Below, one piece after another: positions 9,985 to 51,944 of a DNA stretch of 64,000 nucleotides; the first letter of the stretch is position 1, and every line of letters starts with the position of its first letter. Both the position numbers and the translations under genes were made by a program. Under the pieces are notes generated by a model. It saw nothing but the letters and a program-made list of their open reading frames with translations. It had not been told where the DNA came from and made no database searches. The DNA is from Candidatus Poribacteria bacterium (GTDB lineage: Bacteria > Poribacteria > WGA-4E > WGA-3G): assembly GCA_026702755.1 (NCBI GenBank), contig JAPPBX010000049.1, forward strand, positions 12,057 to 76,056, read 5' to 3'.

Positions 9985-10473
9985 ATGCGAAAACAACAAA
10001 TTGCAGCGAGTTACCAAAACTTCCACGTCATTGCCCACAATTTGGACGAGACAGGTGACCTTAAAGCTGAATGTAAGGCACAATTGGGTGAAGGCGTTCG
10101 GCTTGCTGACTGGAATGACATCCTCGCCTATTATCGAGAAGGCGGTTCACTGGAGGATTTCATCGAGGCTCTTGAGATACCGCTTGAGTATGTTACGCCT
10201 GAAGATACGGATCCGCTACCGAATACCTACTATCGCGTTTCGATGAACGGCGAGCTGCGATGGGAGGGAGATCGCCACTATTTCTTTACGCGGCACGACC
10301 ACACCAAGCGGGCAGGTTTTTTGTCCCACAACGACATTGATAATTACCACCTAACGCTGGGTTCCTGGTTCGGTAAGGGCGGTTTTGCGCTCTGCTACGG
10401 AGACCCGGATAGCACTGTGCCACCGCCAGAACCAGATACCACCGAACCGGTGCAGACATCGGGCGGCGGCTGA
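9985..10473 (+). CDS. hypothetical protein, 162 aa
   Basis: AAGGAG ribosome-binding site before ATG at 9985. Ends in a GGG tail immediately followed by a (GAGGCT)x3 microsatellite. Confidence 0.5.
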   Translation: MRKQQIAASYQNFHVIAHNLDETGDLKAECKAQLGEGVRLADWNDILAYYREGGSLEDFIEALEIPLEYVTPEDTDPLPNTYYRVSMNGELRWEGDRHYFFTRHDHTKRAGFLSHNDIDNYHLTLGSWFGKGGFALCYGDPDSTVPPPEPDTTEPVQTSGGG

Positions 10474-10547
10474 GGCTGAGGCTGAGGCAGCTAATGCAGT
10501 GGCGGTGCCATTGCTCGTTTTTTGCTCGGTAAGTGCGTTTATACAGC

Positions 10548-10765
10548 GTACCATAGGTGTCTATTTAGGGATTTTTCGCTGTATTTTATAGGCCCGTCTT
10601 TACAAATGCCGCCCCTACAGGGCTTAGATTTTTTGGTCCACACGCTGCTATAAACATTTCGTCCCTACGGGACTGAAGAGGGTTTCTGGCGTGTACAAAG
10701 TTCATGGCTAAAACCCGGCGCAGTTAGAATGCAGGTCGCATTTGGGCGTGTACGCCGCAAAACAG
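10548..10765. repeat. repeat family 1 copy (diverged) followed by a shared 30-mer, TCGCATTTGGGCGTGTACGCCGCAAA
   Basis: Aligns to 3301..3400 (ACAGGTGTCAATTTAAGGATTTTTCACGGTATTTTGTAGG and related). The 30-mer also occurs at 6944..6975. Confidence 0.6.
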
Positions 10766-10974
10766 TGCCTACCGGATCTGAGACTACAACGGTCATTTGC
10801 TCTAAAATTGACAGTTATGGTGCGTTTACACAGCGTACCTATGAGGCATTTATATCGGACCCCAGTGAGTTAAAGCAGATGTTTGGGAAATATATAAAAA
10901 CAGAGAAATCATATAACGACAATTCTTAAGTCCAAAACGACTTATTGCGCGTAATTATTTATACACCAACACAA

Positions 10975-11065
10975 GGGCGAGGATACAATCCTCGCGAGCG
11001 GCGGCGAGGAGTTTGTTCCCTGACGAACTGTAACATATTTTCGGATTTTACTATAAAGAACACTC
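10975..11065. repeat. interspersed repeat family 3 copy
   Basis: GGCGAGGATACAATCCTCGCGAGCGG ... TTTTCGGATTTTACTATAAAG. Confidence 0.6.
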
Positions 11066-11178
11066 AATGAAACCGAATACCCCATTTATGTCGTATTATG
11101 CAAGTGGATTTCACCTTTTTTTAAATTTACATGGGGGCATATCAGTTTTGATATTTCGCATTTAATTCGACTCTAATT

Positions 11179-11796
11179 GTGGGTATGAAACAAAACACAC
11201 TTTCAAAATTCAAAAGGAAATTGGTAAAGATGATAGAACCAGATAACTTTGCATGCCACAATGTTCACTTGGAGACTGAACGTCTGAAACTCCGCCCTTT
11301 TAAGGATGCCGATTTTGATATTGCTGTTCCTTTCTACAGAGATCCCGAATTTCTAAACGCGATTGAGGAATCTCCGCCTGACGAACCTGTGACAAAGGAG
11401 TATCTCAAAAAAGCAGGTAAATTCATGAGGGATAGCGGATTTCTGTTTGCAATTGTAGAAAAGTCGAGTGGACGAGCTATTGGCGAGGTATGTCTGCAAT
11501 GGATGAACTTGGAACGGGCGAAAATTGCTGGAGAAAAAATAATGCGTCTACCCATCGCGATTTGGGACAAGAGCTTGTGGGGCAAAGGCTACGGGAAAGA
11601 GGTCGTGCGATGCTTGATGGCGCATGCGTTTGAAAAACTGGAAATAGATCGGTTCTGTCCGGTGGACGTTCCGGTGGACAATGTCCGTTCACAAGCGTTG
11701 TGGCGGTCGCTTGGACTAAGTGTTTCACGAGAAGCGGACGGCGGGAAGATGTTGGACTATGAGATCACACGCGCAGAATATGAGAAAATTAACTGA
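11179..11796 (+). CDS. GNAT family N-acetyltransferase (RimJ/RimL-like)
   Basis: ETERLKLRPF N-terminus typical of RimL-type GNATs. Motif A WGKGYGKE. Alternative start at 11230 (MIEPD) is possible. Confidence 0.75.
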   Translation: MGMKQNTLSKFKRKLVKMIEPDNFACHNVHLETERLKLRPFKDADFDIAVPFYRDPEFLNAIEESPPDEPVTKEYLKKAGKFMRDSGFLFAIVEKSSGRAIGEVCLQWMNLERAKIAGEKIMRLPIAIWDKSLWGKGYGKEVVRCLMAHAFEKLEIDRFCPVDVPVDNVRSQALWRSLGLSVSREADGGKMLDYEITRAEYEKIN

Positions 11797-16437: not shown

Positions 16438-19053
16438 ATGCGATATCTACTGACATTTTGGATCTGTTTAACCCTAATAAGTGGTTATTGCCTATCAGTT
16501 TCTGCGCAGGAAGCAGCACAACCCGCGGCACAAGCAGCACCCGCAAAAAAGAAAAAAGAGTTTGAAGATTTTTCAAAAATTACTGAAGACAGCAAAAGCT
16601 ACCAAGGTTTTTTCAAACTATACGAAAAAAAAGAGAATCTCTATTGTGAAATACAACCCTCACAATTAGACAAACCTTTTCTGTGCATGATTAGTCTTTC
16701 ACGCGGTTTAGCGCGAGGTCGCCTTATTTCTGGAATGACGATGGAAGAGTGGCTGCTCGTCTGGCGGCGTGTCGGCGACAAGGTGCACCTCGTGCGAAAA
16801 AACGTACGTTTCCGCGCTGATAAAGGGACACCGACCGCACAATCCGTTGACTACAGCTACAGCGATTCTGTGCTCTTCTCTCTCAAGATTGAAAGTATAC
16901 ACCCACAACGAGGCAGTCTATTGGTGAATATTTCGCCTGTCTTTATGTCTGACCTACCACCGTTAGCAGGTAGTATTGGCGGAGGTGCCCGTTTTGACAA
17001 AACGCGTAGCACTTGGGGAAAAATCAAAGCATTCCCGAAGAACGTTGAATTGAGAGTTGAAGCGGTATACGCATCGAACAGCTATATAACAACGGTTCCT
17101 GACAGTCGCGGTATCCAGTTGACGTTGCACTATAGTCTCGCTGAACTTCCATCAAACAACTACCGCCCGCGGCTTGCTGATGACCGGGTCGGACATTTCA
17201 TGACAACCGTCAAGGACTACTCGCTTCAAACCAGCGATGCGCCGTATATTCGTTACGTCAATAGATGGCATTTAGAGAAAGCGGACAAAAAGGCGAAACT
17301 TTCGCCACCAATGGATCCAATCATTTTCTATATTGAGAAAACAGTACCACATCGTTTCCGTCCGTACATTCGTCAAGGGATCCTGGAATGGAACAAGGCG
17401 TTTGAAAAAGCAGGATTTGTTGACGCAATAGAAGCACGGATCCAACAAGATTATGAGGATTGGGACCCGGAAGACGCACGGTATAACACGATTCGTTGGG
17501 TTGTTGATGCGGGTTTCGCTATTGGTCCGTCCCGCGTGAATCCATTGACGGGTCAGATATTGGATGCCGATATCCTTATCAGCGACGGCTTCATCAGATC
17601 CTGGCAGCGGGAGTATTCGACGTACTTTGATGAACTCGATCATGAACGGGACCACCCGATGGATCACTCCTCACGGTTCCATTGTCAGATGGCATCCGGA
17701 TTGGCACGCCAGATGGGGTTCATGGCGAGCGTTCTGCAGGCGCGGGGTGTGGTCGGTGAAGACGGCGAATTGCCGGAAGCGTTTATCGGTCAGGCACTTA
17801 AAGCACTGACGATGCACGAAGTTGGACATACGTTGGGGTTGCGTCACAACTTTAAAGCGAGTACGATACATTCGCTTGATGACTTGAACAAGAAAAGCGA
17901 TGAAGCACTCCTCGGCTCCGTAATGGAATACGACGCTGTGAACATTGCCCCTGAAGGTAAAAAACAGGGCGATTACTATACAACAACAATTGGGCCCTGG
18001 GACTACTGGGTGATCGAGTATGCCTATAAATCGATCAATGCGAGTAACCCTGAAGGTGAACTAAAGGAGTTGGGCAAGATCGCTTCCCGTGTCGCAACAC
18101 CAGGACTGACGTACGGCACAGACGGCGATGCGTCCTCATATCAATATAGGGATTTGGACCCGCTGGTTAATCGGTGGGACCTCGGTTCGGATCCGCTCGA
18201 TTTTGCCAAACAACGTCGCGAGATTGTCGTTGAACTCTGGGACAAGATTGCTGACAAAGTTGCAAAAGAAGGGATGGGTTATCAGCGTGTCAGGCGTGCC
18301 TTCGGGTCCCTGCTTGGTGAACACGGTTATTCCATGTACCTTGCAAGCCGTTATATCGGCGGGCAGTATCACCATCGCGATCATCGTGGCGATGAGAATG
18401 GACGTTTACCCTTCGTGCCTGTTCCGGCGGCGAAACAACGCGAGGCACTTGAGTTCCTCAAAGAACATGCGCTCTCGGACAAAGCCTTCGATTTTCCTCC
18501 TGATTTACTCAACAGTCTCGCTGTCACACGTTGGAGCGACTGGGGCTCCGGGACCGGGGGGTCTACACGTTTGGATTATCCGGTGCATACTGTCATCCTA
18601 CGCAATCAGACCCGCATTTTGGGACGCTTGCTCTATCCGAATGTGCTTGCCCGCGTTCAGGACACAGAGTTGAAGTTTCCTGAGGGTGAAGACGCGTTTA
18701 CACTACCAGAACTCTTCTCAGGTATTACGGATGCGGTTTGGACAGAACTGGATCGGAATGTCGGAGAAAAGCAGTGGTCGAATACGGATGCATTCATCTC
18801 CAGTTTCCGGCGCGCGTTGCAACGTGAACACTTGAAGCAACTCATCAAATTGATACTGGATGCGGATAGTGGAACGCCTGAGGATGCAAGGTCGCTTGCT
18901 CGACATCATCTCGGACAAATCAATACTCGGATACAAGGCGTGCTTCAGAATGCCCAAGGGAGACTTGACGACTATAGCTTGGCACACCTCCAAGAATCGC
19001 AAGTCCGAGTCGCGAAGGCGTTGGATGCCAGTTTCCAAGTCCAGAAGCGTTAA
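16438..19053 (+). CDS. secreted zinc-dependent metalloprotease, 871 aa (DUF4953/DUF5117-like), tandem copy 1
   Basis: Signal peptide. MHEVGHTLGLRHNF zinc-binding HExxHxxGxxH motif followed by SVMEY. AAGGAG ribosome-binding site. Confidence 0.8.
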   Translation: MRYLLTFWICLTLISGYCLSVSAQEAAQPAAQAAPAKKKKEFEDFSKITEDSKSYQGFFKLYEKKENLYCEIQPSQLDKPFLCMISLSRGLARGRLISGMTMEEWLLVWRRVGDKVHLVRKNVRFRADKGTPTAQSVDYSYSDSVLFSLKIESIHPQRGSLLVNISPVFMSDLPPLAGSIGGGARFDKTRSTWGKIKAFPKNVELRVEAVYASNSYITTVPDSRGIQLTLHYSLAELPSNNYRPRLADDRVGHFMTTVKDYSLQTSDAPYIRYVNRWHLEKADKKAKLSPPMDPIIFYIEKTVPHRFRPYIRQGILEWNKAFEKAGFVDAIEARIQQDYEDWDPEDARYNTIRWVVDAGFAIGPSRVNPLTGQILDADILISDGFIRSWQREYSTYFDELDHERDHPMDHSSRFHCQMASGLARQMGFMASVLQARGVVGEDGELPEAFIGQALKALTMHEVGHTLGLRHNFKASTIHSLDDLNKKSDEALLGSVMEYDAVNIAPEGKKQGDYYTTTIGPWDYWVIEYAYKSINASNPEGELKELGKIASRVATPGLTYGTDGDASSYQYRDLDPLVNRWDLGSDPLDFAKQRREIVVELWDKIADKVAKEGMGYQRVRRAFGSLLGEHGYSMYLASRYIGGQYHHRDHRGDENGRLPFVPVPAAKQREALEFLKEHALSDKAFDFPPDLLNSLAVTRWSDWGSGTGGSTRLDYPVHTVILRNQTRILGRLLYPNVLARVQDTELKFPEGEDAFTLPELFSGITDAVWTELDRNVGEKQWSNTDAFISSFRRALQREHLKQLIKLILDADSGTPEDARSLARHHLGQINTRIQGVLQNAQGRLDDYSLAHLQESQVRVAKALDASFQVQKR

Positions 19054-19142
19054 GTGCTTGTACGTTTCGGTCAGGATTTTCATAAAACCCAACTACTTTC
19101 TGGCGGGGTTGATGAAGATTAAGAATTTAATTTGGTAATGTA

Positions 19143-19180
19143 GGGGCAGGCACAAGACCTGCCCCTACAATCATTTTCCT
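19143..19180 (+). terminator. hairpin GGGGCAGGCACAAGACCTGCCCC downstream of copy 1 (terminator-like; weak T-tract)
   Basis: 8-bp perfect stem. The same hairpin recurs at 24592 and a variant at 45620. Confidence 0.4.
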
Positions 19181-19279
19181 CAAGGATATTACCGAAATAT
19201 TTATTTAAACTTCATCAAACCCCGCCAACCTCAGTAAGTTTTCGCTTGTCAGCTGCACCCAAAATCAGGAGAAAAAATA

Positions 19280-21898
19280 GTGCGACCTCTATTCACTTTT
19301 TGGATCTGTTTAACGCTAATATGTAGTTATTGCCTTTCGGTAGCTGCTCAGGAAGCAGCACAACCCGCAAAACCCGCAACACAGGAAACACCTAAAAAAA
19401 CAAAAAAAGAGTTCCAAGATTTCGCAAAGGTAACTGAAGACAGCAAAAGCTACCAAGGCTTTTTCAAACTCTACCAGAAGAAAGAGAACCTCTATTGCGA
19501 GATACAACCCGCACAACTGAACCAGCCTTTTTTATTTTTGATTACGATTTCAGGCGGTATGGGGAACAACTTCCTCGCCGCAGGGGAGATCTGGGATCAG
19601 TGGCTGCTTGCTTGGCGACGTGTCGGCGACAATGTGCATCTCGTGCGAAAAAACACCCGTTTCCGCGCTGATAAAGGGACACCGACCGCACAAGCCGTTG
19701 CGTATGGTTATAGTGACTCTGTGCTATTTTCTCTCAAGATTGAAAGTATCCATGCACAACGGAAAAGCCTTTTGGTAAACATTTCACCCGTTTTCATCTC
19801 CGATCTACCCCCCTTGGCACGCTATATTGGTGGTGCTTTCGACAAAACGCGTAGCACTTGGGGAAAAATCAAGGCGTTCCCAAAGAATGTCGAGTTGAAA
19901 GTCAAAGCCGTCTACACATCAACACGCTACATAGAGGCTGTCCCCGATAGTCGTGGGATTCAGTTGACGCTGCATTACAGCCTCGCGAAACTCCCAGAAA
20001 ACAACTATCGTCCTCGGTTGGCTGACGACCGGCTTGGGCACTTTATGACAGCGATCAAAGACTATTCACTTCAAACCAGTGATGCCCCCTTCACCCGCTA
20101 TGTCCAGCGATGGCATCTGGAGAAGGCAGACAAAAAAGCGAAACTTTCACCGCCGAAAAAACCGATTATCTTTTACATCGAGAAAACGGTGCCACACCGC
20201 TACCGTCCCTACATCCGACAAGGGATTCTCGAATGGAACAAGGCGTTTGAAAAGGCAGGCTTTGTCGATGCAATTGAGGCACGCATTCAACAAGATTATG
20301 AAGATTGGGATCCCGAAGACGCACGCTATAATACGATCCGTTGGATTGTCGGTGCAACTTTTGGGTATGGTCCATCCCGCGTGAATCCACTCACAGGCGA
20401 GATCTTGGATGCCGATATCCTTTTGGGTGACGGTTGGATCAGATACTGGCAGCAAGATCACAGAACCTTCTTTGATAAACTGGCGTATGAACGCGATCAT
20501 CCGATGGATCACACTTCACACTTTCGGTGTCAGATGTCATCCGGCTTGGCACATCAGATGAACCTCATGGCGAGTGTGTTGCAGGCGCGTGGTTTGACAG
20601 ATGAAGGCGGTGAACCATCAGAAGTTTATGTCGGGGAAGCAATGAAATTATTGGTGATGCATGAAGTAGGACATACGTTAGGGTTACGTCACAACTTTAA
20701 AGCGAGTACAATACTCTCCCTTGAAGAACTGAACACGAAAAAAGACGAACCCCTCTACGGTTCCGTCATGGAATACGAAGCCGTGAATATCGCTCCCGAA
20801 GGCGAAAAGCAAGGACATTTCTTTTCACCGACAGTCGGTCCTTGGGATGACTGGGTGATCGAGTATGCCTATAAACCGATCGACGCAAGCAAACCTGAAG
20901 ATGAATTGGAAGCGTTGGGTAAAATCGCTTCCCGTGTCGCAGCACCGGAACTCACTTACGGCACAGATGAAGATGTTTACGGCTATCAATACCGTAATCT
21001 GGATCCGCTGGTAAATCTTTGGGATCTGGGTGCCGACCCATTTGAGTTCGCCAAACAACGGCGCGAGATCATCGTTAAACTTTGGGAGAAAATTGCGGAC
21101 AAGGTTATAAAAGAGGGGATGGGCTATCAACGTGTCCGGCGAGCCTTCGAGACCCTACTCTATGAACATGAGAGTGCGATGTATCTCGCAAGTCGCTATA
21201 TCGGCGGGCAGTATCACCATCGCGATCACCGCGGCGATGAAAATGGACGTTTACCCTTCGTGCCAGTTCCGGCGGCGAAACAACGCGAAGCACTCCAATT
21301 CCTGAAAGAATACGCCCTTTCCGACAGTGCCTTCGATTTTCCACCCGATCTACTTAACAGCCTCGCTGTCACGCGTTGGAGCGATTGGGGATCAAGTAGC
21401 GGTGGTTCCACACGTTTGGACTACCCCGTGCATCAGGTCATCCTATGGAATCAAACCTTTATCTTGGAACGGCTGCTTTATCCGAATGTTCTCGCGCGGA
21501 TTCAGGACACAGAATTGAAGTTTCCCAAAGGTGAAGATGTGTTCACACTGCCTGAACTCTTTTCAGGTATCACGGACGCGGTCTGGGTAGAACTCGATCG
21601 GAATGTCGGCGAAAAGCAGTGGTCGAATACCGATGCTTTCATTTCCAGTTTCCGGCGCGGGCTGCAGCGGGAACACCTCAAGCAGCTTATCAAACTGGTG
21701 TTGGATGCCGACAGTGGCACCCCCGAAGATGCGCGATCCCTCGCACGCCTACATCTCGAAGAAATCAACACGCAGATACAAGGTGTGCTTCAGAATGCCC
21801 AAGGGAGACTCGATGATTATAGTCTGGCGCACCTCAAAGAGTCGCAAGTTCGCGTCGCGAAGGCGTTGGATGCAAGTTTTCAAGTTCAGAAACGTTAG
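19280..21898 (+). CDS. secreted zinc-dependent metalloprotease, 872 aa, tandem copy 2 (GTG start)
   Basis: Same architecture and LVMHEVGHTLGLRHNF motif. Starts with GTG after a CAGGAG ribosome-binding site. Confidence 0.8.
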   Translation: MRPLFTFWICLTLICSYCLSVAAQEAAQPAKPATQETPKKTKKEFQDFAKVTEDSKSYQGFFKLYQKKENLYCEIQPAQLNQPFLFLITISGGMGNNFLAAGEIWDQWLLAWRRVGDNVHLVRKNTRFRADKGTPTAQAVAYGYSDSVLFSLKIESIHAQRKSLLVNISPVFISDLPPLARYIGGAFDKTRSTWGKIKAFPKNVELKVKAVYTSTRYIEAVPDSRGIQLTLHYSLAKLPENNYRPRLADDRLGHFMTAIKDYSLQTSDAPFTRYVQRWHLEKADKKAKLSPPKKPIIFYIEKTVPHRYRPYIRQGILEWNKAFEKAGFVDAIEARIQQDYEDWDPEDARYNTIRWIVGATFGYGPSRVNPLTGEILDADILLGDGWIRYWQQDHRTFFDKLAYERDHPMDHTSHFRCQMSSGLAHQMNLMASVLQARGLTDEGGEPSEVYVGEAMKLLVMHEVGHTLGLRHNFKASTILSLEELNTKKDEPLYGSVMEYEAVNIAPEGEKQGHFFSPTVGPWDDWVIEYAYKPIDASKPEDELEALGKIASRVAAPELTYGTDEDVYGYQYRNLDPLVNLWDLGADPFEFAKQRREIIVKLWEKIADKVIKEGMGYQRVRRAFETLLYEHESAMYLASRYIGGQYHHRDHRGDENGRLPFVPVPAAKQREALQFLKEYALSDSAFDFPPDLLNSLAVTRWSDWGSSSGGSTRLDYPVHQVILWNQTFILERLLYPNVLARIQDTELKFPKGEDVFTLPELFSGITDAVWVELDRNVGEKQWSNTDAFISSFRRGLQREHLKQLIKLVLDADSGTPEDARSLARLHLEEINTQIQGVLQNAQGRLDDYSLAHLKESQVRVAKALDASFQVQKR

Positions 21899-21948
21899 AC
21901 CGAATTTACAACGTGAAAGTAAATAATGTAAAATAAGGAGAAAATTCA

Positions 21949-24564
21949 ATGCAACGCCAATTGACTTTTTGGCTCTGTTTAATTCTAATCAGCAGTTGTT
22001 ACCTGCCGATATTCGCACAACAAGCAGCACAACCCGCAACACAAGAAGCACCCACGAAACCAAAAAAAGAGTTCCCAGACTTCTCGAAAGTTATCGAGGA
22101 TAGCAAAAGCTACCAAGGTTTTTTCAAACTATACCAGAAAAAAGAGAATCTTTATTGTGAGATACAACCCGCACAATTGAACCAACCCTTTCTATGCATG
22201 ATTAGTCTTGCGCGCGGCTTAGGGAGAGGATCCCTTATCTCTGGGATGACGATGGATGAGTGGCTGCTGGTCTGGCGACGCGTTGGCGACAACGTGCATC
22301 TCATGCGAAAAAATGTGCGTTTCCGCGCTGATAAAGGGACACCGACCGCACAGGCGGTTGACTACGGTTATAGTGACTCTGTGCTGTTCTCTCTTAAGAT
22401 TGAAAGTATCCATCCACAACGGAAAAGCCTTTTGGTAAATATCTCACCTGTTTTTGTATCCGATCTACCGCCTTTGGCACGTAGGATCGCCCCAGATGCG
22501 CGCTTCGACAGAACGCGCAGCACTTGGGGAAAAATCAAGACATTCCCAAAGAATGTGGAGTTGAAAGTTAACGCGGCGTACACCTCGTCAAGTTATATAG
22601 AAACTGTGCCCGACAGTCGTGGGATTCAATTGACGCTGCACTATAGCCTCGCGAAACTTCCATCGAACAACTACCGTCCTCGGTTGGCTGACGACCGGCT
22701 TGGACACTTTATGACAACAATCAAAGATTACTCGCTTCAAACCAGCGATGCGCCGTATATCCGTTACGTCAATCGATGGCATCTGGAGAAAGCAGACAAA
22801 AAGGCGAAACTCTCACCTCCGATGGATCCGATCATTTTCTACATTGAGAAAACGGTGCCGCACCGGTTTCGTCCGTACATTCGCCAAGGGATCCTGGAAT
22901 GGAACAAGGCATTTGAAAAGGCAGGCTTTGTCGATGCAATTGAGGCACGTATTCAACAAGATTACGAGGATTGGGACCCCGAAGATGCCCGCTATAACAC
23001 GATCCGCTGGGTTGTTGACGCAGGCTTCGCGATTGGTCCGTCCCGCGTGAACCCGTTGACAGGACAGATATTGGATGCCGATATTCTTATCAGCGACGTT
23101 TTTATCAGAAGTTGGCAGCGACAGTATAAAACATACTTTGATGAGTTAGCACACGAGCGCGATCATCCGATGGATCACACCTCACACTTTCAGTGTCAAC
23201 TGGCATCTGGATTGACACGTCAGATGGGGTTCATGGCGAGCGTCTTGCAGGCACGCGGTCTGACGGGCGAAGACGGTGAATTACCAGAAAAATTTATCGG
23301 CGAGGCACTGAAAACACTGACGATGCATGAGGTCGGTCACACATTGGGATTACGTCACAATTTTAAATCGAGTACGATATACTCTCTTGACGATCTGAAC
23401 GACAAAACAGACGAGGCAACCGTCGGTTCCGTCATGGATTACTGGGGCGTGAATGTTGCTCCCGAAGGTAAAGAACAGGGACATTACTATACGCCGACGG
23501 TTGGTCCTTGGGATTATTGGGTCGTCGAGTATGCCTATAAACCGATTGCTGCAAGTAACCCTGAAGGTGAATTGGAGGCATTGGGTAAAATCGCCTCCCG
23601 TGTCGCAACACCGGAACTTACCTACGGAACAGATGGCGATGTTTACAGCTATCAATACCGTAATCTGGATCCGCTGGTAAATGTTTGGGATCTGGGTGCC
23701 GACCCGCTTGAGTTTGCCAAACAACGGCGAGAAATTGTCGTTAACCTTTGGGACAAAATTGCGGATAAGGTCACAAAAGAGGGGATGGGCTATCAACGGG
23801 TCCGACAGGCATTTGGGAGATTGCTTGGTGAACATGCGAATGCGATGTACTTTGCAAGCCGATATATCGGTGGGCAGTATCACCATCGCGATCATCGCGG
23901 TGATGAAAATGGACGTTTACCTTTTGTGCCGGTTCTCGCAGCGAAACAACGCGAAGCACTCCAATTCCTCAAAGAACACGCCCTCTCGGACAAAGCCTTC
24001 GATTTCTCGGCTGACCTACTCAACAGTCTCGCTGTCACGCGTTGGAGTGATTGGGGATCAAGTAGTGGGAGTTCTACGCGTTTGGATTATCCCGTGCATC
24101 AGATCATTCTGAACAATCAAACCTTTATCTTGGGACGACTGCTTTATCCGAATGTTCTGGCGCGGATTCAGGACACAGAGTTGAAGTTTCCTAAGGGTGA
24201 AGATGTGTTCACACTGCCAGAACTCTTTTCAGGTATCACGGACGCTGTCTGGGTAGAACTTGATCGGAATGTCGGCGAAAAGCAGTGGTCGAATACCGAT
24301 GCTTTCATTTCCAGTTTCCGGCGCGGTTTGCAGCGGGAACACCTCAAGCAGCTTATCAAACTGGTGTTGGAGGCTGATAGTGGCACCCCGGAGGATGCAA
24401 GGTCGCTCGCACGCCTACATCTCGAAGAAATCAACACGCAGATACAAGGCGTACTTCAGAATGCGCAAGGGAGACTTGACGATTATAGTTTAGCACACCT
24501 CGAAGAATCGCAGGTCCGAGTCGCAAAGGCTCTGGATGCGAGTTTCCAAGTTCAGAAACGGTGA
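21949..24564 (+). CDS. secreted zinc-dependent metalloprotease, 871 aa, tandem copy 3
   Basis: Same architecture. LTMHEVGHTLGLRHNF. AAGGAG ribosome-binding site. Only 50 bp after copy 2. Confidence 0.8.
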   Translation: MQRQLTFWLCLILISSCYLPIFAQQAAQPATQEAPTKPKKEFPDFSKVIEDSKSYQGFFKLYQKKENLYCEIQPAQLNQPFLCMISLARGLGRGSLISGMTMDEWLLVWRRVGDNVHLMRKNVRFRADKGTPTAQAVDYGYSDSVLFSLKIESIHPQRKSLLVNISPVFVSDLPPLARRIAPDARFDRTRSTWGKIKTFPKNVELKVNAAYTSSSYIETVPDSRGIQLTLHYSLAKLPSNNYRPRLADDRLGHFMTTIKDYSLQTSDAPYIRYVNRWHLEKADKKAKLSPPMDPIIFYIEKTVPHRFRPYIRQGILEWNKAFEKAGFVDAIEARIQQDYEDWDPEDARYNTIRWVVDAGFAIGPSRVNPLTGQILDADILISDVFIRSWQRQYKTYFDELAHERDHPMDHTSHFQCQLASGLTRQMGFMASVLQARGLTGEDGELPEKFIGEALKTLTMHEVGHTLGLRHNFKSSTIYSLDDLNDKTDEATVGSVMDYWGVNVAPEGKEQGHYYTPTVGPWDYWVVEYAYKPIAASNPEGELEALGKIASRVATPELTYGTDGDVYSYQYRNLDPLVNVWDLGADPLEFAKQRREIVVNLWDKIADKVTKEGMGYQRVRQAFGRLLGEHANAMYFASRYIGGQYHHRDHRGDENGRLPFVPVLAAKQREALQFLKEHALSDKAFDFSADLLNSLAVTRWSDWGSSSGSSTRLDYPVHQIILNNQTFILGRLLYPNVLARIQDTELKFPKGEDVFTLPELFSGITDAVWVELDRNVGEKQWSNTDAFISSFRRGLQREHLKQLIKLVLEADSGTPEDARSLARLHLEEINTQIQGVLQNAQGRLDDYSLAHLEESQVRVAKALDASFQVQKR

Positions 24565-37480: not shown

Positions 37481-38608
37481 TTACATTTCTGGCTGAAACG
37501 GCTCCAGTGACAGTGAGGGTTTCCCTGTCGTGATCAGTTCACCGATGAGTTGCCCCGTGATCGGTGCGAGCAGAATGCCGTTTTTGAAATGTCCAGATGC
37601 CAAAACGACGTTATTATATCCCGGCAAGTAACCGAGAAGCGGTCCTTTTTTCACATAAGGACGCAAACCTGCCCACGTTTGCACAAAAGTGCTGTTCGCG
37701 AGTTGCGGGGCGATGGCAATACCAGCATCAATCATCTGCTTGGTACCGTCCACTGTTGCGGTTTTGTCATAACCGACAAATTCGACTGTAGCACCGAGCA
37801 AAATTTTGCCATCGGCTCTCGGTACGACGTAGATGCCGAGTCCATCAACGATATGCTGAAAAGGCGGCGGCATCGCTTCAACGAGGACGATCTGCCCCTT
37901 CGCGGGTCCAATCTGTATCGGCACGTCAAGTTGGGCAATCAACGCACCTGCCCAGCATCCGGCAGCAATCACGAACGTGTCCGCGTATAAGGTTTCGCCG
38001 TTCACGACGACCCCGACAACGCGGTTTCCACCGTTTTCACTGTCTCGGACAAAGTCGGTGACAGGATTGCCTACTTGGAATTCCGCACCGAGTTTTGCTG
38101 CTCCCTTTGTGAGTGCCGTCACCATCTTCGGGTTGCGGACTTGTGCATCTTCAGGAAACAGAACGGCACCAGCAATAGATTTCGAGAGTGCTGGCTCCAA
38201 CTCCCACGCTTGTTCGGCTGTCAAGACTTCCGCTGAAAAACCGCGTTTCACGCGCCGGTCTGCGAGACCAATTAATCCCGCTGCCTCAGCCTGATTGAAG
38301 AATACCGATAGGGTCCCAGATTGGATGAACTCAATATCTATCTGGGTCTCTGTACGGAGTTCCTCCGCTAACGACGGATACAACTCAAGGCTTGCGCGGC
38401 AGAGCGTTGGATACGGTTCATGTGTTGACGCGTGTGAGGTTAAGATGCCTGCGCCTGCCCATGAAGCCTCCGTACCCACAGCGTGCGCTTTGTCAATCAC
38501 CAAGGGTTTCACGCCTCGCTTGGCAAGATCGTAAGCGATGGCACACCCGATAATCCCTCCACCAATAATGATGACATCGGCGTGATTTTGATTCAAGTTT
38601 TCCTCCAC
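37481..38608 (-). CDS. FAD-dependent oxidoreductase, glycine oxidase (ThiO)/D-amino acid oxidase family
   Basis: DVIIIGGGIIGCAIAYDLAKRG dinucleotide-binding motif. 375 aa. GTG start. Confidence 0.75.
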   Translation of the reverse strand: MEENLNQNHADVIIIGGGIIGCAIAYDLAKRGVKPLVIDKAHAVGTEASWAGAGILTSHASTHEPYPTLCRASLELYPSLAEELRTETQIDIEFIQSGTLSVFFNQAEAAGLIGLADRRVKRGFSAEVLTAEQAWELEPALSKSIAGAVLFPEDAQVRNPKMVTALTKGAAKLGAEFQVGNPVTDFVRDSENGGNRVVGVVVNGETLYADTFVIAAGCWAGALIAQLDVPIQIGPAKGQIVLVEAMPPPFQHIVDGLGIYVVPRADGKILLGATVEFVGYDKTATVDGTKQMIDAGIAIAPQLANSTFVQTWAGLRPYVKKGPLLGYLPGYNNVVLASGHFKNGILLAPITGQLIGELITTGKPSLSLEPFQPEM

Positions 38609-38866
38609 TTTACCCTAAAATTGCAACAATTTAGTTTAGCACATTGTTGGGTCGCCTGTCAATCTCAGTTGCCAAATGCCAATTTGACTACTTATATACA
38701 TTTTCGGATGCACTTATTCTGACAATGCAGATTGCAACTTGAAATTTCGGCGGATTCGGTGTATAATTACTACAAACATTATCAAGCAAACTATCTCAAA
38801 TTCGGTGGTGCAGGAAAAAGTAGATTAGCACAAAAACCTCGCCCAACATGAAAGGTCTTTTATTAC

Positions 38867-39154
38867 ATGATCCTTGGAAAAGTGACCGGGACAATCGTCG
38901 CGACGCAGAAAGATGAAAAATTGATCGGAAGCAAGCTGATGGTTGTCCAAGATGTAAACCTGGACGGAGACGTTGATCGGAAATATACAGTCGCTGTAGA
39001 TGCGGTAGGTGCTGGCATCGGTGAAATCGTCCTTATCGCCACCGGTAGTTCCGCTCGACAGACCGCAGTGACGAGCAATAAACCGGTTGACGCTGTAATC
39101 ATGGCGATTGTTGATACCGTGGAAGTCGCTGGAAAAGTCAGGTATCAAAAGTAG
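38867..39154 (+). CDS. bacterial microcompartment vertex (pentamer) protein, EutN/CcmL/PduN family
   Basis: MILGKVTGTIVATQKD..LIGSKLMVVQ....VAVDAVGAGIGEIVLIATGSSARQ matches the conserved EutN_CcmL blocks. 95 aa. Confidence 0.8.
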   Translation: MILGKVTGTIVATQKDEKLIGSKLMVVQDVNLDGDVDRKYTVAVDAVGAGIGEIVLIATGSSARQTAVTSNKPVDAVIMAIVDTVEVAGKVRYQK

Positions 39155-39159
39155 AAACA

Positions 39160-39735
39160 ATGAAGATCGCGACCGAACGGAAACGCGTCCGCACTGAAAC
39201 ACTCCACCGTCGCGAGGCACTCATCTCAGAAGAGAGGGCAAGGCTCAGCCAGCGTATCGTTAATTCCGTTTCACGCTGGATACAGCGTGAGGGTTTCGAT
39301 TCCGTGATGCTCTACCTGAGTATGAGAAGCGAGGTTGAAACTACCGATCTGCTTGAAGGGTTACTTAATTCAGGTAAGCAGGTTTGCGCGCCAGTGATAA
39401 ATACCGAACAGGTAAAACTCACACCAAGGCGGGTTCAGAATCCGAAAACAGAACTGGTACGTCATCGCTACGGCATGTTGGAACCTAAAGACGCATGTCC
39501 AATTTTCCCGACTGAACACCTTCAACTCATCGTGGTTCCCGGTATCGCCTTCGATCGGAAGGGGTATCGTCTCGGCTATGGCAAGGGTTTCTACGACCGA
39601 TTCCTCACGAAATGCCCACACGCCATTCCCATTGGATTAGCATATCAGATACAGGTTGTAGAAGATACGTTTCCACAAGCGTGGGATGTCCCTGTTCAAC
39701 ACATCTTCACAGAGACCGGTAGGATAGCGATTTAA
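39160..39735 (+). CDS. 5-formyltetrahydrofolate cyclo-ligase (MTHFS)
   Basis: LRxxxxxLS N-terminal region, then LIVVPGIAFDRKGYRLGYGKGFYDRF C-terminal motif. Confidence 0.85.
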   Translation: MKIATERKRVRTETLHRREALISEERARLSQRIVNSVSRWIQREGFDSVMLYLSMRSEVETTDLLEGLLNSGKQVCAPVINTEQVKLTPRRVQNPKTELVRHRYGMLEPKDACPIFPTEHLQLIVVPGIAFDRKGYRLGYGKGFYDRFLTKCPHAIPIGLAYQIQVVEDTFPQAWDVPVQHIFTETGRIAI

Positions 39736-40122: not shown

Positions 40123-40589
40123 CTCTCACATCACCTCCTTCAATTCACGCAGTTTGATAACTACCTCTTGAAATCTTTGCTTCCAATTTTGAAAAAAATG
40201 AAAATTATTTATCAGTATACTACATTTTCACGCGCTGTCAAGTGACGAACCTTTGGTAGACAAATAACCTTGCATTCCTCTACCAAATGTGGTGTACTAC
40301 TTAAACCAGTTTTGGGTGGCATTGCTACGAGATGGTATCTCAACACCGTTCTCTGCTACCCTTCCACCGTAGGTAGCAAGTGGATAACGGACTGTGGATT
40401 GGAAAACCTTAAAATGGAGTACACGATGAACTTTGAGAACCGATGACAACGACGAGATCCGCTGCCGGTAAACTGCACAGAACATTTTGTGACGCGAGAG
40501 TCAATTATATCCGCTGCTTTCCTGATTTATACTCAATTTTTATTTGCCATTTCACATTATGTATGGTATTGTATGTATCGGAATAATTT

Positions 40590-41042
40590 ATGGTAAACGC
40601 TCAGAAAGTCATATATTCAGATCAGGAAATAGAAGAATTTGTACAAGAACGCAAGATTTTGCCAGATGATTGGTATAGTAGACTGATTAGACGAAATAAA
40701 GAGAAGGGAGAATTGACTGTCATAGGCGATAAAGGGAATGAGTTCCGAATCATTGTCAGACCAGACGACCTTGTGCCTTTAGATTTTTCAGTTATTTTGG
40801 TAGTTGTTACTAAATCAAACCCAAATTTTAAACTCCGGCGCTACAATGGGCGGACCAGTGGGCACAGAAACCGGATTGAGAAAGAAAGAATTGAAGGGTT
40901 TCATATTCATTACGCTACAGAGCGGTATCAACGGAGAGGATTAAAGGAAGAAGCTTATGCGCTACCAACGGATCGCTATAACAGCTACGAGGGTGCCCTT
41001 CGCTGCTTAATCAAAGATGCGAATTTTGTGGAACCGCTGTAA
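40590..41042 (+). CDS. hypothetical protein, 150 aa (AT-rich cassette gene 1)
   Basis: ORF in a locally AT-rich block. No family recognised. Confidence 0.45.
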   Translation: MVNAQKVIYSDQEIEEFVQERKILPDDWYSRLIRRNKEKGELTVIGDKGNEFRIIVRPDDLVPLDFSVILVVVTKSNPNFKLRRYNGRTSGHRNRIEKERIEGFHIHYATERYQRRGLKEEAYALPTDRYNSYEGALRCLIKDANFVEPL

Positions 41043-41069
41043 CAGGTACTTTTTTTCGGGGAGTAAGCA

Positions 41070-41852
41070 ATGTCTGCCAATACCATACAACAAGACTTTA
41101 TTAATAAGGTCTCCGCACAGATAAGTCTTTCAGCAGATGGTAAAGACCGTTTCCGGGTATTAACGCCCTTCCAATTCGAGGATGGTGATGAATTAGTTAT
41201 CGTCCTAAAGAAGGAGAGTGAACGGTGGCTGCTCTCCGACGAATCGCATACCTACAGGCACCTCGCCTACGATATTGATGAGAAACTTCTTTATAGCGGT
41301 GCACGCTGGAAACTTATCTCTAAAGCCCTTTCTATGTTTGAGGTTGAAAACCGCAGTGGAGAATTAATACTTGATGTATCGGATGAGCGTTACGGTGAAG
41401 CACTATACGACTTCGTTCAAGCTCTTCTCAAGATAACGGATGTGTCATATTTGTCAAGGGACCGAGTTCAATCCACATTTATGGAAGATTTCCATGAACT
41501 CTTACATGAAAAGGTGAAAACGACGCGCATGGCATTTGAATGGCATGATAAGGATCGTGATCCGCAAGCAAATTATAAAGTAGATTGTCTAATTAATGGG
41601 ATGCCGGAGTCTCTTTTTGTGTATGCTCTTGCCAATGATAATAAAACACGTGATGCTACAATCTCGATTCACCAATTCAAAGAGTGGGGTATATCTTTTA
41701 GGTCCGTAGGAATTGTCAAGGATGAGAAGGCTACGAGTCGCAAAGTGCTTGCCCGTTTCCGAGATGTGTGTGATGCGTGTTTTGTTGACCTAAAAAAAAG
41801 CGGTAAAGACATCAGACAATATCTGGATAATAATATCTCTTTACCTTCGTAA
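41070..41852 (+). CDS. hypothetical protein, 260 aa (AT-rich cassette gene 2; possibly DUF1828/DUF1829-like)
   Basis: 27 bp after gene 1, same strand. No catalytic motif recognised. Confidence 0.45.
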   Translation: MSANTIQQDFINKVSAQISLSADGKDRFRVLTPFQFEDGDELVIVLKKESERWLLSDESHTYRHLAYDIDEKLLYSGARWKLISKALSMFEVENRSGELILDVSDERYGEALYDFVQALLKITDVSYLSRDRVQSTFMEDFHELLHEKVKTTRMAFEWHDKDRDPQANYKVDCLINGMPESLFVYALANDNKTRDATISIHQFKEWGISFRSVGIVKDEKATSRKVLARFRDVCDACFVDLKKSGKDIRQYLDNNISLPS

Positions 41853-42070
41853 ACTATCGCGCGGTAGCATGCGTCACTAACTGGGCAATTTCGATTGGCG
41901 TTGAAAGTGTACCCGTTTAATAATACGTCTGGCAAAGCTGGTAAAGGTAAATAATGTGCCGCGGTTCGTGACTATAGCGTTTTAGAGTGTGTATGGCAGC
42001 TTACGGTTAAACATACCGTAGGCTGCCATTTTTTTTGTTCTTATCCGCAGTGTGAAAACTGACCTACCCC

Positions 42071-42270
42071 GACAACCCCCTAACCCCCCTTATCAGCGGA
42101 ATAAGAAGTCGGGAGGGTTATTCTGAGATGTTTCTTCTGATGCATTTATAGATGCCGCCCCTACGGGGCTTAGGTTTGGGGTGTACTGTTTTTCTACACA
42201 GATGTCACCCCTACGGGGTTGAAGAGGATGGGCGAGGTTGGAAAACTCGCCTACCGAGTGTAGAGTGAAA
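42071..42270. repeat. degenerate repeat family 2 copy plus partial repeat family 1 copy
   Basis: CCCCCTTATCAGCGG at about 42085. GATGCCGCCCCTACGGGGCT at about 42151. GATGTCACCCCTACGGGGTTGAAGAGG at about 42203. GGCGAGGTTGGAAAACTCGCCTACCGAG end module. Confidence 0.6.
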
Positions 42271-42313
42271 CGGACAGGATAAACCACGATATGGAGATCA
42301 CTCCTACATTAAC

Positions 42314-49605: not shown

Positions 49606-51075
49606 TCAATTGTCCTGTGGTTTCTCAATATCTTGATGTTTTTGCTCGGTCTGTTTTCCGACATCTGGATTTAGTTCCCTAGCTTTTTCATAGTCAACTC
49701 GTGCTTCTTCTTGCAATCCGAGTGCCTGCTTTACCAGACTGCGGCTGTAGTAGGCGAGTGCACAATCCGGTTTGAGGTTGATAGTTTCAGTATAATCCTC
49801 TATAGCATCACGATAGTGGCTTTCTGTCTGCTCCATATTCCCCTGATCCGTTTCCAATTTACCGAAGTAAAATTTTGCATCACCACGATTTCTGTAAGTA
49901 TCGGTATCCTCCGGTTCAAGCAAAAGTTTCGCGTAATGGCGCATTAGAGAATCCTCGGCATACTCCGCTGAATTTAATCTAAGGGCTTCAGTACAATCGT
50001 CAATCGCTGCACAGTAGTACTCTTGTGCTTGCTCTTGGTCGCCTTGGGAGGCTGCGGATTGCGCCAGTTTAGTTTTCGTATAACCGCGATTACTATAGGC
50101 ACCTGCATACTCTGAGTTAAGTTTGATGGCTTTATTAAAGTCTGCAATCGCCTCGTTATAGTAGTTCAGTGCCTGTTCCACATTTCCCTTAGCCACCTCA
50201 GATTCACCTAATTTAGTCTTCGCATAACCGAGAATTCTGTCATCCTGTCCTAAACCTTCTTCCGCGTCGAGTTTGTTAGCTGTATTAAAGTCTGCAACAG
50301 CTTCGTGATAATAATGTTGTGCTTCCTCTGCGTTTTCCTTGACTTCTTCAAATTGGCCGAGATGTAACTTTGCAAGACCGCAAATTCCGTAAGCAGCAGC
50401 AAACTCCGGATTTAGCTCAACGGTTTTATCAAAAGCATCTATCGCTTCAGCATGGGCACCATGAAGAAATTTGAATTGTCCTTGAGCGTAGTAAGTATAG
50501 GCACGTATAGGATCTTTTTTCCGAAACTGTGCTAAAGGTTCGGTTAACTCCGATTGAGAAAGCAATACCTTGAGAGCGTTTGAGGGAACAGCAACACCGT
50601 AAGTTCCTGTGCTGCCAGCAGCAACACCTATAACTTCACTTTTACTGTTGAGCATAGGACCACCACTCATGCCCCCCACATACTCAGCGTCCACCCAAAA
50701 CTTTTTGCTGTCACCGCGGATACCCTGTATGATTCCGGTTGTGACCTTGTATTCAGTTTCTGGGAAACCTAAAGTAAAAACTCGTTCGCCGATCTGAACA
50801 GCGTCACTGTTCCCAAGTGGAAGAGGTTTACCTTCAGCCAACACCTTTAAGATAACCAAGTCATTTTTAAGATCAAACGTTGTTACACCGTCTACTTCCC
50901 ACACGGTTTCTCCATCAACTGACTTCGCAGAAACCAGTCCCTCCCCATAAACAGCATGGATGTTGGTAACAACCTTTTCAGGTTCTACAAAGAATCCACT
51001 ACCGACACCAACGAGTTTTCCCGATTCCGCCTCAATCGAGCGGATTTGTACAATAGATTCTCCGTTATGTTTCAT
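49606..51075 (-). CDS. trypsin-like serine protease with TPR repeats (paralog 3, no signal peptide at chosen start)
   Basis: Triad contexts TNIHAV, NDLVILK and GGMSGGP. Long TPR C-terminus. Start set at MKHNGES to avoid a 150 bp overlap with the upstream gene. Confidence 0.7.
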   Translation of the reverse strand: MKHNGESIVQIRSIEAESGKLVGVGSGFFVEPEKVVTNIHAVYGEGLVSAKSVDGETVWEVDGVTTFDLKNDLVILKVLAEGKPLPLGNSDAVQIGERVFTLGFPETEYKVTTGIIQGIRGDSKKFWVDAEYVGGMSGGPMLNSKSEVIGVAAGSTGTYGVAVPSNALKVLLSQSELTEPLAQFRKKDPIRAYTYYAQGQFKFLHGAHAEAIDAFDKTVELNPEFAAAYGICGLAKLHLGQFEEVKENAEEAQHYYHEAVADFNTANKLDAEEGLGQDDRILGYAKTKLGESEVAKGNVEQALNYYNEAIADFNKAIKLNSEYAGAYSNRGYTKTKLAQSAASQGDQEQAQEYYCAAIDDCTEALRLNSAEYAEDSLMRHYAKLLLEPEDTDTYRNRGDAKFYFGKLETDQGNMEQTESHYRDAIEDYTETINLKPDCALAYYSRSLVKQALGLQEEARVDYEKARELNPDVGKQTEQKHQDIEKPQDN

Positions 51076-51101
51076 GAATGGACCTCCGTCAGTTTTTTGA
51101 A

Positions 51102-51944
51102 TTATCGGTATGTATGCATGCTGTCTAAAAAGAGATCCACGCCGACATAGGTGCAGAGCACAGCAACGAAACCGAGGATTGCAGCGTACGCAGCTCTTCG
51201 TCCGTGCCACCCCCAAAACTGGCGGAGACCAATTTGGACGATATAGATGAACCACGTCACGAAGGTGGAGATTACCTTCGCATCAAGCCACCTCCACGGG
51301 ACATCTCGGATATATTGGGTCCAAAGACTCCCAACGATGACCCCCATTGTGAGCAGAATTACACCAAGAATTGTGCAGCGATACCCAAGCTCATCGGAAG
51401 TCCCGAGAGAAGGAAGGAGATTGTCAAGGAGTGCGTCCGTCTTCTGGCGAATCTTCCGCTCCGTCATCAGGTACATCAGTCCAAACCCAAACGCGGCGAT
51501 AAACGCTGCATAGGCGAGGAAAATAAGTGTGGTATGCGCCAGAAGCCAATAGTTTTGCAACGGTTCCGGGAGTGCAGCGGTGTGCGTGGCGAAACTATAC
51601 GAAATGAGGATAGCAATGAATGCAACAGGCATCACAAAACTACCGAGTGTGCGGAGATGCGTCAAACGCACGATGATGAGATAGATAAGTGTGATTGCCC
51701 ATGCAAAGAAGGCAGTGGAGTCGGTCCAGTGCGTCATCGGAAAATGCCCTTGTTGGAGCCACCAGAGCGCGATAAAGAGGGTCAGAAAAGCAAAACCGAT
51801 GCTGGTGCTCCAAAAAGCGATTCGTTCAATTGTCGGACGGATCACCGCCGCTCCGGATCTATTGCCGATAGCCAGCGAAAGGGTTTGAAAAATGCTCGCT
51901 GCTAAGTATATTAGAAGGGTGAGGAGAAACAGAAAATTTATCAT
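51102..51944 (-). CDS. cytochrome c assembly protein family (CcsA/HemX-like) membrane protein
   Basis: Eight hydrophobic helices and a tryptophan-rich segment. Position upstream of hemA as in hemAXCDBL-type operons. Confidence 0.6.
   Translation of the reverse strand: MINFLFLLTLLIYLAASIFQTLSLAIGNRSGAAVIRPTIERIAFWSTSIGFAFLTLFIALWWLQQGHFPMTHWTDSTAFFAWAITLIYLIIVRLTHLRTLGSFVMPVAFIAILISYSFATHTAALPEPLQNYWLLAHTTLIFLAYAAFIAAFGFGLMYLMTERKIRQKTDALLDNLLPSLGTSDELGYRCTILGVILLTMGVIVGSLWTQYIRDVPWRWLDAKVISTFVTWFIYIVQIGLRQFWGWHGRRAAYAAILGFVAVLCTYVGVDLFLDSMHTYR

Follow-up and report, generated by a model that had tools for sequence, protein, structure and literature searches.

A 64-kb stretch of genomic DNA from the sponge-associated phylum Candidatus Poribacteria (the window) carries a gene for a vertex protein of bacterial microcompartments (BMC). 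The protein belongs to the EutN/CcmL family of pentameric shell proteins (BMC-P) and is here called EutN. Its gene is followed, after a few nucleotides, by that of a folate enzyme, 5-formyltetrahydrofolate cyclo-ligase (MTHFS):

38867-39154, plus strand: gene for the EutN/CcmL-family BMC-P vertex protein, 95 amino acids (PF03319)
39160-39735, plus strand: gene for 5-formyltetrahydrofolate cyclo-ligase (MTHFS), 191 amino acids (TIGR02727, PF01812), probably on the same transcript as EutN

The segment 38867-39154 encodes a genuine, well-conserved BMC-P, as an earlier note on this DNA had claimed with high confidence. The 95-amino acid protein was detected by the EutN_CcmL hidden Markov model (PF03319) with 104.4 bits (cut-off 25), and the match covers the whole profile (positions 1-83 of 83). 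The closest relative of solved structure is the Haliangium ochraceum (HO) BMC-P 5v74 (E = 8.5e-28, 56% identity over all 95 residues), which was solved within the intact 6.5-MDa shell of that organism. An AlphaFold2 monomer model of EutN (pLDDT 91.9, pTM 0.83) contains the OB-like β-barrel of the pentamer subunit. It could be superposed on the structures of CcmL, HO BMC-P and EutN with TM scores of 0.91-0.94 and a root mean square deviation of 1.2-1.3 Å. When the PDB was searched for similar folds with this model, all 47 matches at E ≤ 0.001 were BMC-P proteins, with TM scores of up to 0.94.

Alignments revealed three invariant or nearly invariant motifs in EutN: GAGIGE (residues 48-53), GSSAR (60-64) and IVD (81-83). 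Residues G48, A49, G50 and E53, the GSSAR segment, I81 and D83 are identical in the window protein, in its Poribacterial and locus-embedded relatives, in HO BMC-P and in Escherichia coli EutN. The contact-motif positions among them (G48, A49, G50, E53, I81 and D83) are likewise invariant in the 66 Poribacterial orthologues described below, which share 43 of the 95 positions without exception. The GAGxGE and I(V/I)D motifs reportedly form the contact between pentamers and hexamers (BMC-P and BMC-H) in solved shells; mentions of GAGxGE in a shell-contact role in the literature lend partial support to this definition. Conservation of the pentamer interface had been proposed as a check; the motifs of the pentamer-hexamer contact are kept. 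This BMC-P is predicted to form homopentamers that would cap the vertices of a shell.

The gene stands alone in the window, in agreement with the earlier note. A tblastn search with EutN recovered a single copy, and a tblastn search of the whole window with PduA, CcmK2 and EutM as seeds found no BMC-H or BMC-T gene (best match, E = 0.057). All open reading frames (ORFs) of at least 100 amino acids in the window were annotated, either directly with Pfam or through the gene calls of near-identical contigs. Among them there was no PF00936 protein and no candidate signature enzyme of the families PF00171 (aldehyde dehydrogenase), PF06130 (PduL) or PF00596 (class II aldolase). The flanks of EutN free of shell genes extend over ∼38.8 kb upstream and 24.8 kb downstream, and the gene content of the window includes TPR-trypsin proteases, met-zincins, PhyH dioxygenases, acetyl- and methyltransferases, an ECF sigma factor, a heme-biosynthesis cluster and TnpB.

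Neighbouring genes and transcription

Three further features flank the EutN-MTHFS pair:

37481-38608, minus strand: ThiO-type glycine oxidase (FAD), divergent neighbour (TIGR02352, 278.4 bits; threshold 250.8)
38739-38767, plus strand: sigma70-like promoter, TTGAAA-17 nt-TATAAT, matching the consensus at 11 of 12 positions, ∼100 nt ahead of the EutN start codon
39736-40122, minus strand: ComEA-type helix-hairpin-helix gene (PF12836, 86.4 bits; TIGR00426, 70.3 bits)

The divergent gene had been described as a ThiO-like FAD oxidase, and its score above the equivalog threshold bears this out. ThiO and the ComEA-type gene are treated here as context genes. MTHFS matched PF01812 with 138.9 bits and TIGR02727 with 170.7 bits (cut-off 84.9; residues 7-185 of 191), and the convergent ComEA-type gene abuts its stop codon. 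With the profiles covering residues 7-185 of MTHFS and 12-362 of the 375 residues of ThiO, neither protein has a terminal extension that could serve as an encapsulation peptide.

MTHFS lies directly downstream of EutN, as had been noted, and its start codon follows the stop codon of EutN after a spacer of 5 nt (39155-39159). No terminator-like site was found between the two genes. In sponge metatranscriptomes, Jahn et al. 2016 reported for the single-cell genome (SAG) 3G 299.6 fragments per kilobase per million mapped reads (FPKM) for the orthologous EutN (group C, see below) and 306.7 FPKM for the adjacent MTHFS, together with 1047 FPKM for BMC-H and 323.6 FPKM for PduL. All four genes are thus transcribed in hospite. 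Because the spacer is 5 nt long, no terminator intervenes, and the transcript levels of the SAG 3G orthologues are nearly equal, EutN and MTHFS are probably co-transcribed, which was also the view of the earlier note.

The hexamers of the sigma70-like promoter recur with identical sequence and spacing 50-180 nt upstream of EutN in 28 of the 37 loci of the clade in which MTHFS directly adjoins EutN, and in six of the loci with an intervening kinase-regulator pair (both arrangements are described below). This recurrence is a phylogenetic footprint consistent with a constitutive-type promoter that EutN may use. No sigma54 −24/−12 match lies near EutN in the window, which as a whole contains 15 such matches against 19.5 expected by chance, and no conserved intergenic sigma54 match was found in the kinase-regulator loci. 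A sigma54-like string (e.g. TGGGACAGTCGTTGCA) at 38886-38901, at +20 inside the EutN coding sequence, recurs across many loci; it codes for the conserved peptide GTVVAT, and its resemblance to a promoter is most likely coincidental. An Rfam scan of the whole window gave no match, and neither a 6S RNA nor a thiamine pyrophosphate riboswitch was found near MTHFS or ThiO. PADLOC gave no match for EutN; the one match for MTHFS, to Cas11f at 15.2 bits, is not credible.

Orthologues, outside relatives and known systems

The proteins closest to EutN (up to 99% identity) and their loci all belong to Candidatus Poribacteria. An identical protein is encoded on GCA_028821605.1, and chromosome OZ220722.1 carries a copy with 99% identity. 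A scan with one genome per species yielded 80 loci, to which four were added by exact-protein look-ups; 66 of these loci are of the Poribacterial type, and many lie on closed chromosomes of 4-7 Mb. In none of the 66 was a BMC-H gene present within 10 kb of the EutN orthologue. A vertex gene that is detached from BMC-H on dozens of closed chromosomes indicates that the fragmentation is real, and not an artefact of the assembly of SAGs or metagenome-assembled genomes (MAGs).

Two arrangements predominate downstream of EutN. MTHFS follows within 3-144 nt in 35 loci, and a 36th, L016, breaks off within the MTHFS gene. In 28 loci (in the range L033-L066 and L087-L089), a sigma54-dependent response regulator with Response_reg, Sigma54_activat and HTH_8 domains lies between EutN and MTHFS, ∼330-3500 nt after the EutN start. 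It is mostly preceded by a histidine kinase with PAS, HisKA and HATPase domains, and MTHFS is seen downstream in 24 of these 28 loci. No MTHFS lies within 10 kb of EutN in L055, L057, L066, L067 and L068. The divergent ThiO gene is kept in most crown-group Poribacterial loci, and is not next to EutN in L064, L066, L067, L068, L087 and L089.

In a neighbour-joining tree of EutN rooted on non-Poribacterial sequences, which is indicative only, being computed from 95 residues without bootstrap, the loci with direct EutN-MTHFS adjacency form one clade nested among the kinase-regulator loci. The deepest lineages (L064, L066, L087 and L089), whose EutN is 69-77% identical to that of the window, have the kinase-regulator version. 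Since the direct-adjacency loci nest among kinase-regulator loci and the deepest lineages keep the regulators, the 5-nt junction is most simply explained as derived, the product of a secondary deletion. A derived tight junction argues against an obligatory functional coupling of EutN and MTHFS, and one born by the loss of a sigma54 two-component system would caution against reading function from the adjacency of the two genes.

In one deep lineage (L087, 14110-20288), MTHFS immediately precedes rsmH-ftsL-ftsI-murE-murF, a cluster for division and cell wall, and SAG 4E is similar, with MraW after MTHFS. This gene order suggests that MTHFS is part of a housekeeping block into which the EutN unit was inserted.

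Selection on the neighbourhood was compared by the ratio of nonsynonymous to synonymous substitution rates (dN/dS). The median pairwise dN/dS was 0.062 for EutN, 0.077 for ThiO, 0.128 for ComEA and 0.156 for MTHFS, values that are approximate at a dS of ∼1.1. EutN thus has the lowest dN/dS of the neighbourhood, and that of MTHFS is 2.5 times as high. Within the direct-adjacency clade, the median identity to the window is 91% for EutN versus 73% for MTHFS. With its motifs kept and strong purifying selection acting on it, EutN is not expected to have lost its assembly partners. That the detached gene is more constrained than its housekeeping neighbours, and retains the shell-contact motifs, argues for a fragmented system that is functional.

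Outside Poribacteria, the 17 nearest relatives share 57-66% identity with EutN. A PduA-like BMC-H gene lies immediately upstream in 14 of them, most with two further BMC-P genes nearby, and MTHFS is near none of the 17. The gene order is RpiB-DeoC-H-P-P-P, the SPU type, in L072 (Anaerolineae), and H-P-AldDH-T-P-P, HO-like, in L086 (a Pseudomonadota MAG). The first BMC-P proteins of such SPU- and HO-like loci (L069-L086, from Anaerolineae, Myxococcota, Gemmatimonadota and Pseudomonadota MAGs) agree with EutN in length and motifs, and differ in context: their genes come directly after BMC-H and near two further BMC-P genes, in loci that contain RpiB/DeoC or aldehyde dehydrogenase. The phylogeny of this BMC-P against locus-associated copies, which had been suggested as a further check, was obtained with the same tree. 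Two Calditrichaceae loci without an adjacent BMC-H (L076 and L078) are sister to the Poribacterial clade, a position that matches the statement of Sutter et al. 2021 (PMC8217296) that Calditrichaeota carry sets like those of the fragmented type FRAG2.

Two further genes were noted beside EutN in divergent Poribacterial loci. In L068, the most divergent Poribacterial MAG (pelagic), a 348-amino acid protein encoded at 10298-11344, 9 nt after EutN, has a partial class II aldolase match (PF00596, 39.7 bits), and in L067 a 2-hydroxyacid dehydrogenase gene (7743-8696) lies 1.3 kb upstream of EutN. According to Sutter et al. 2021 (PMC8217296), both enzyme families belong to the ACI-type locus. The two genes, one case each, are possible traces of the ancestral locus; no counterpart of either was found in the window or in the other loci compared.

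The arrangement in the window has a published precedent. In Poribacterial single-cell genomes, Kamke et al. 2014 (PMC3909097) found three conserved shell-gene regions, A to C, and a further one, group D, that was confined to SAG 4E. Group A combines one BMC-H gene with genes for PduL and ExbD, and in group B tandem EutN genes adjoin riboflavin genes and a two-component system of the NtrC type. Group C of SAG 3G consists of ThiO (POR3G_02617), EutN (02618), MTHFS (02619) and ComEA (02620). The window has the same four genes in the same order and orientation, and nothing substantive differs; it represents the same clade in another genome. The ThiO/EutN/MTHFS/ComEA arrangement and the scattering of shell genes are thus already published, the window is another instance of them, and the pairing with a folate enzyme, which the earlier note called unusual, is not a new oddity. 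For SAG 4E, the same authors noted a two-component system between EutN and MTHFS, the arrangement found here in 28 loci. The regulator pair that Kamke et al. describe beside the tandem EutN is a second, non-homologous pair; it and the pair between EutN and MTHFS are possible controllers of the organelle. New here are: i) the detachment from BMC-H over 66 loci, ii) the clade with the derived junction, iii) the constraint on EutN, iv) the fold match, and v) the conserved promoter.

The Poribacterial SAGs each carry one or two PF00936 genes and three PF03319 genes. Axen et al. 2014 termed all Poribacterial loci 'satellite-like', and the FRAG types of Sutter et al. 2021 (PMC8217296) have no main locus, their shell genes being spread over as many as six sites. 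Of the 33 loci assigned to FRAG2, which has two BMC-H and a triplet of BMC-P, 21 are from Poribacteria, the main carriers of this type. The green clade of that work includes a Poribacterial BMC-P of 95 amino acids with the label 'FRAG2 (sat)', and FRAG-type compartments are described as having no recognisable signature enzymes. The gene studied here resembles FRAG2 in its Poribacterial taxon, and in that no BMC-H or core enzyme gene lies beside BMC-P in the 64 kb of the window or within 10 kb in the Poribacterial loci. The window protein was matched to the green-clade entry by phylum, length and description, and not by sequence comparison.

In the terms of Axen et al. 2014, the locus has the insufficient shell complement of a satellite (a single PF03319 gene). 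The strict definition, under which a main BMC locus lies elsewhere in the genome, probably does not apply, given that every Poribacterial locus is satellite-like in the scheme of Axen et al. and that no main locus was reported by Sutter et al. The earlier suggestion that the main BMC locus is elsewhere is hence partly sustained: other shell genes do lie elsewhere according to the literature, but a main locus probably does not exist in FRAG2.

Two known systems are comparable. The HO BMC-P (Hoch_5814 type; 5v74, 6mzx) shares 56% identity, a TM score of 0.93 and the GAGxGE, GSSAR and IVD motifs with EutN, and the HO system has one BMC-H and three BMC-P, partly in satellite loci. However, the HO gene lies beside BMC-H, aldehyde dehydrogenase and BMC-T in the main locus, whereas the Poribacterial gene is without these within at least 10 kb. 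The distal cyanobacterial satellites ccmK3/ccmK4 likewise have their own promoter away from other shell genes, but they are BMC-H paralogues that supplement a main carboxysome locus, whereas the detached gene of Poribacteria encodes a BMC-P and has no known main locus.

Interpretation of the EutN-MTHFS pairing

It is likely that EutN is one pentameric vertex protein of a fragmented FRAG2 shell, and that its pairing with MTHFS is an inherited accident of gene order. The ancestral BMC-P would have stood directly downstream of BMC-H in a canonical metabolosome locus, as it still does in the closest outside relatives. The Poribacterial ancestral locus would then have broken up, with the shell genes scattered over several chromosomal sites (FRAG2; Kamke groups A-C), and EutN may have come to head a unit with its own sigma70-type promoter, composed of EutN, a histidine kinase, a sigma54-dependent regulator and MTHFS. 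In the clade of the window, both regulator genes would have been lost, which would have left EutN 5 nt from MTHFS. EutN pentamers would assemble into a shell with BMC-H encoded elsewhere. The neighbourhood is no evidence for folate salvage in, or dependent on, the compartment.

Several points weigh against this explanation. The polarity of the regulator loss depends on the unbootstrapped neighbour-joining tree of a 95-amino acid protein. In most of the phylum, no more than 4 kb separates EutN from MTHFS, and selection, not inertia alone, is a possible reason. For the BMC-H and the two other BMC-P of the same genome, the explanation relies on the literature (Kamke 2014, Jahn 2016, Sutter 2021): a protein search with the L086 BMC-H returned only proteins of at least 82% identity, of which the named ones are from Myxococcota, and the only matches to the second BMC-P of a Calditrichaceae FRAG-like locus were proteins from Calditrichota and Bacteroidota. 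Furthermore, polyhedral bodies are not reported in Poribacteria, and in the only localisation study Jahn et al. 2016 found the BMC-H label at the periphery or membrane of the cell, so that closed shells in Poribacteria are putative.

The same labelling bears on the possibility, raised in the earlier note, that EutN acts outside a closed shell, which we regard as unlikely. The BMC-H immunolabel is ring-shaped and lies at the membrane, where Jahn et al. 2016 proposed reactions 'confined by BMC-like proteins', and a non-shell role would fit the detachment of EutN from all other shell genes and the presence in the SAGs of three PF03319 but only one or two PF00936 genes. However, a BMC-P triplet with a single BMC-H is normal in shells that assemble, e.g., that of H. 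ochraceum. The residues of the BMC-H contact (GAGxGE and I(V/I)D, by the partly supported definition) are invariant, and the EutN model is indistinguishable from shell-embedded subunits. Together with the strong purifying selection, these observations leave nothing that points to a role away from a shell.

A functional neighbourhood was also considered, i.e., a compartment tied to glycine and one-carbon metabolism whose vertex gene is co-expressed with ThiO and MTHFS, both acting there. ThiO-type glycine oxidase yields glyoxylate, an aldehyde, and H2O2, and MTHFS removes 5-formyltetrahydrofolate, which serine hydroxymethyltransferase forms as a by-product when glycine is present. The two enzymes thus share a glycine and one-carbon theme, and ThiO, EutN and MTHFS adjoin in most crown-group Poribacterial loci. 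The transcript levels of EutN and MTHFS in SAG 3G are equal, and FRAG compartments have no recognisable signature enzymes. Nevertheless, we find this proposal improbable. The regulators lie between EutN and MTHFS in 28 loci, ThiO is not beside EutN in the deep lineages, and MTHFS is not within 10 kb in five loci. The adjacency is confined to Poribacteria, with MTHFS near none of the 17 outside relatives. In addition, MTHFS evolves at 2.5 times the dN/dS of EutN, neither enzyme has a terminal extension and hence a candidate encapsulation peptide, and a literature search for microcompartments together with MTHFS gave nothing relevant. The narrower proposal, that the ThiO/BMC-P/MTHFS neighbourhood is a clue to FRAG2 chemistry and denotes a constitutive, glycine- or one-carbon-linked compartment, seems to us very improbable. 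If it were true, the aldehyde sequestered in the compartment would be glyoxylate made by glycine oxidase, and MTHFS would clear 5-formyltetrahydrofolate from the folate pool.

Finally, we give practically no credence to a boundary artefact, with EutN as the edge gene of a complete microcompartment locus just outside the window, for which nothing speaks beyond the general rule that shell genes cluster: the window flanks given above hold no shell or core enzyme gene, the 10-kb flanks on closed chromosomes of more than 30 species contain the same housekeeping neighbours and no BMC-H, and the published surveys report no main locus in Poribacteria.

Other genes of the window

Between ComEA and a gene for a 179-amino acid protein, the window carries a low-GC insert (40200-42300; GC content 0.419 versus ∼0.48). 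It contains a stretch that resembles DUF6978 weakly, below the threshold (40590-41042), and a gene of the DUF1828 family (41070-41852), whose product matches the PADLOC candidate defence family PDC-M24B with 72.7 bits. Among contigs that encode an identical EutN, the insert is absent from L001 and present in L002, L003 and L005, and L004 has an N6_N4 methyltransferase and an HNH gene at the site. The region looks like a strain-variable defence hotspot.

At 16438-24564 there are three tandem ORFs of 871, 872 and 871 amino acids. The first is a met-zincin with DUF5117, DUF5118 and DUF4953 domains, and the other two are assumed to be its paralogues from their length and position. A TnpB-like gene (60557-61903, minus strand; OrfB_IS605 and a Cas12f1-like TNB domain) lies at the edge of the heme-biosynthesis cluster, and a TnpB-like gene occupies the corresponding place in the related contig L093. 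Three genes, at 1844-5210 and 49606-51255 (minus strand), encode trypsin-like peptidase domains fused to long TPR arrays, and are reminiscent of the eukaryote-like repeat proteins reported for Poribacteria.

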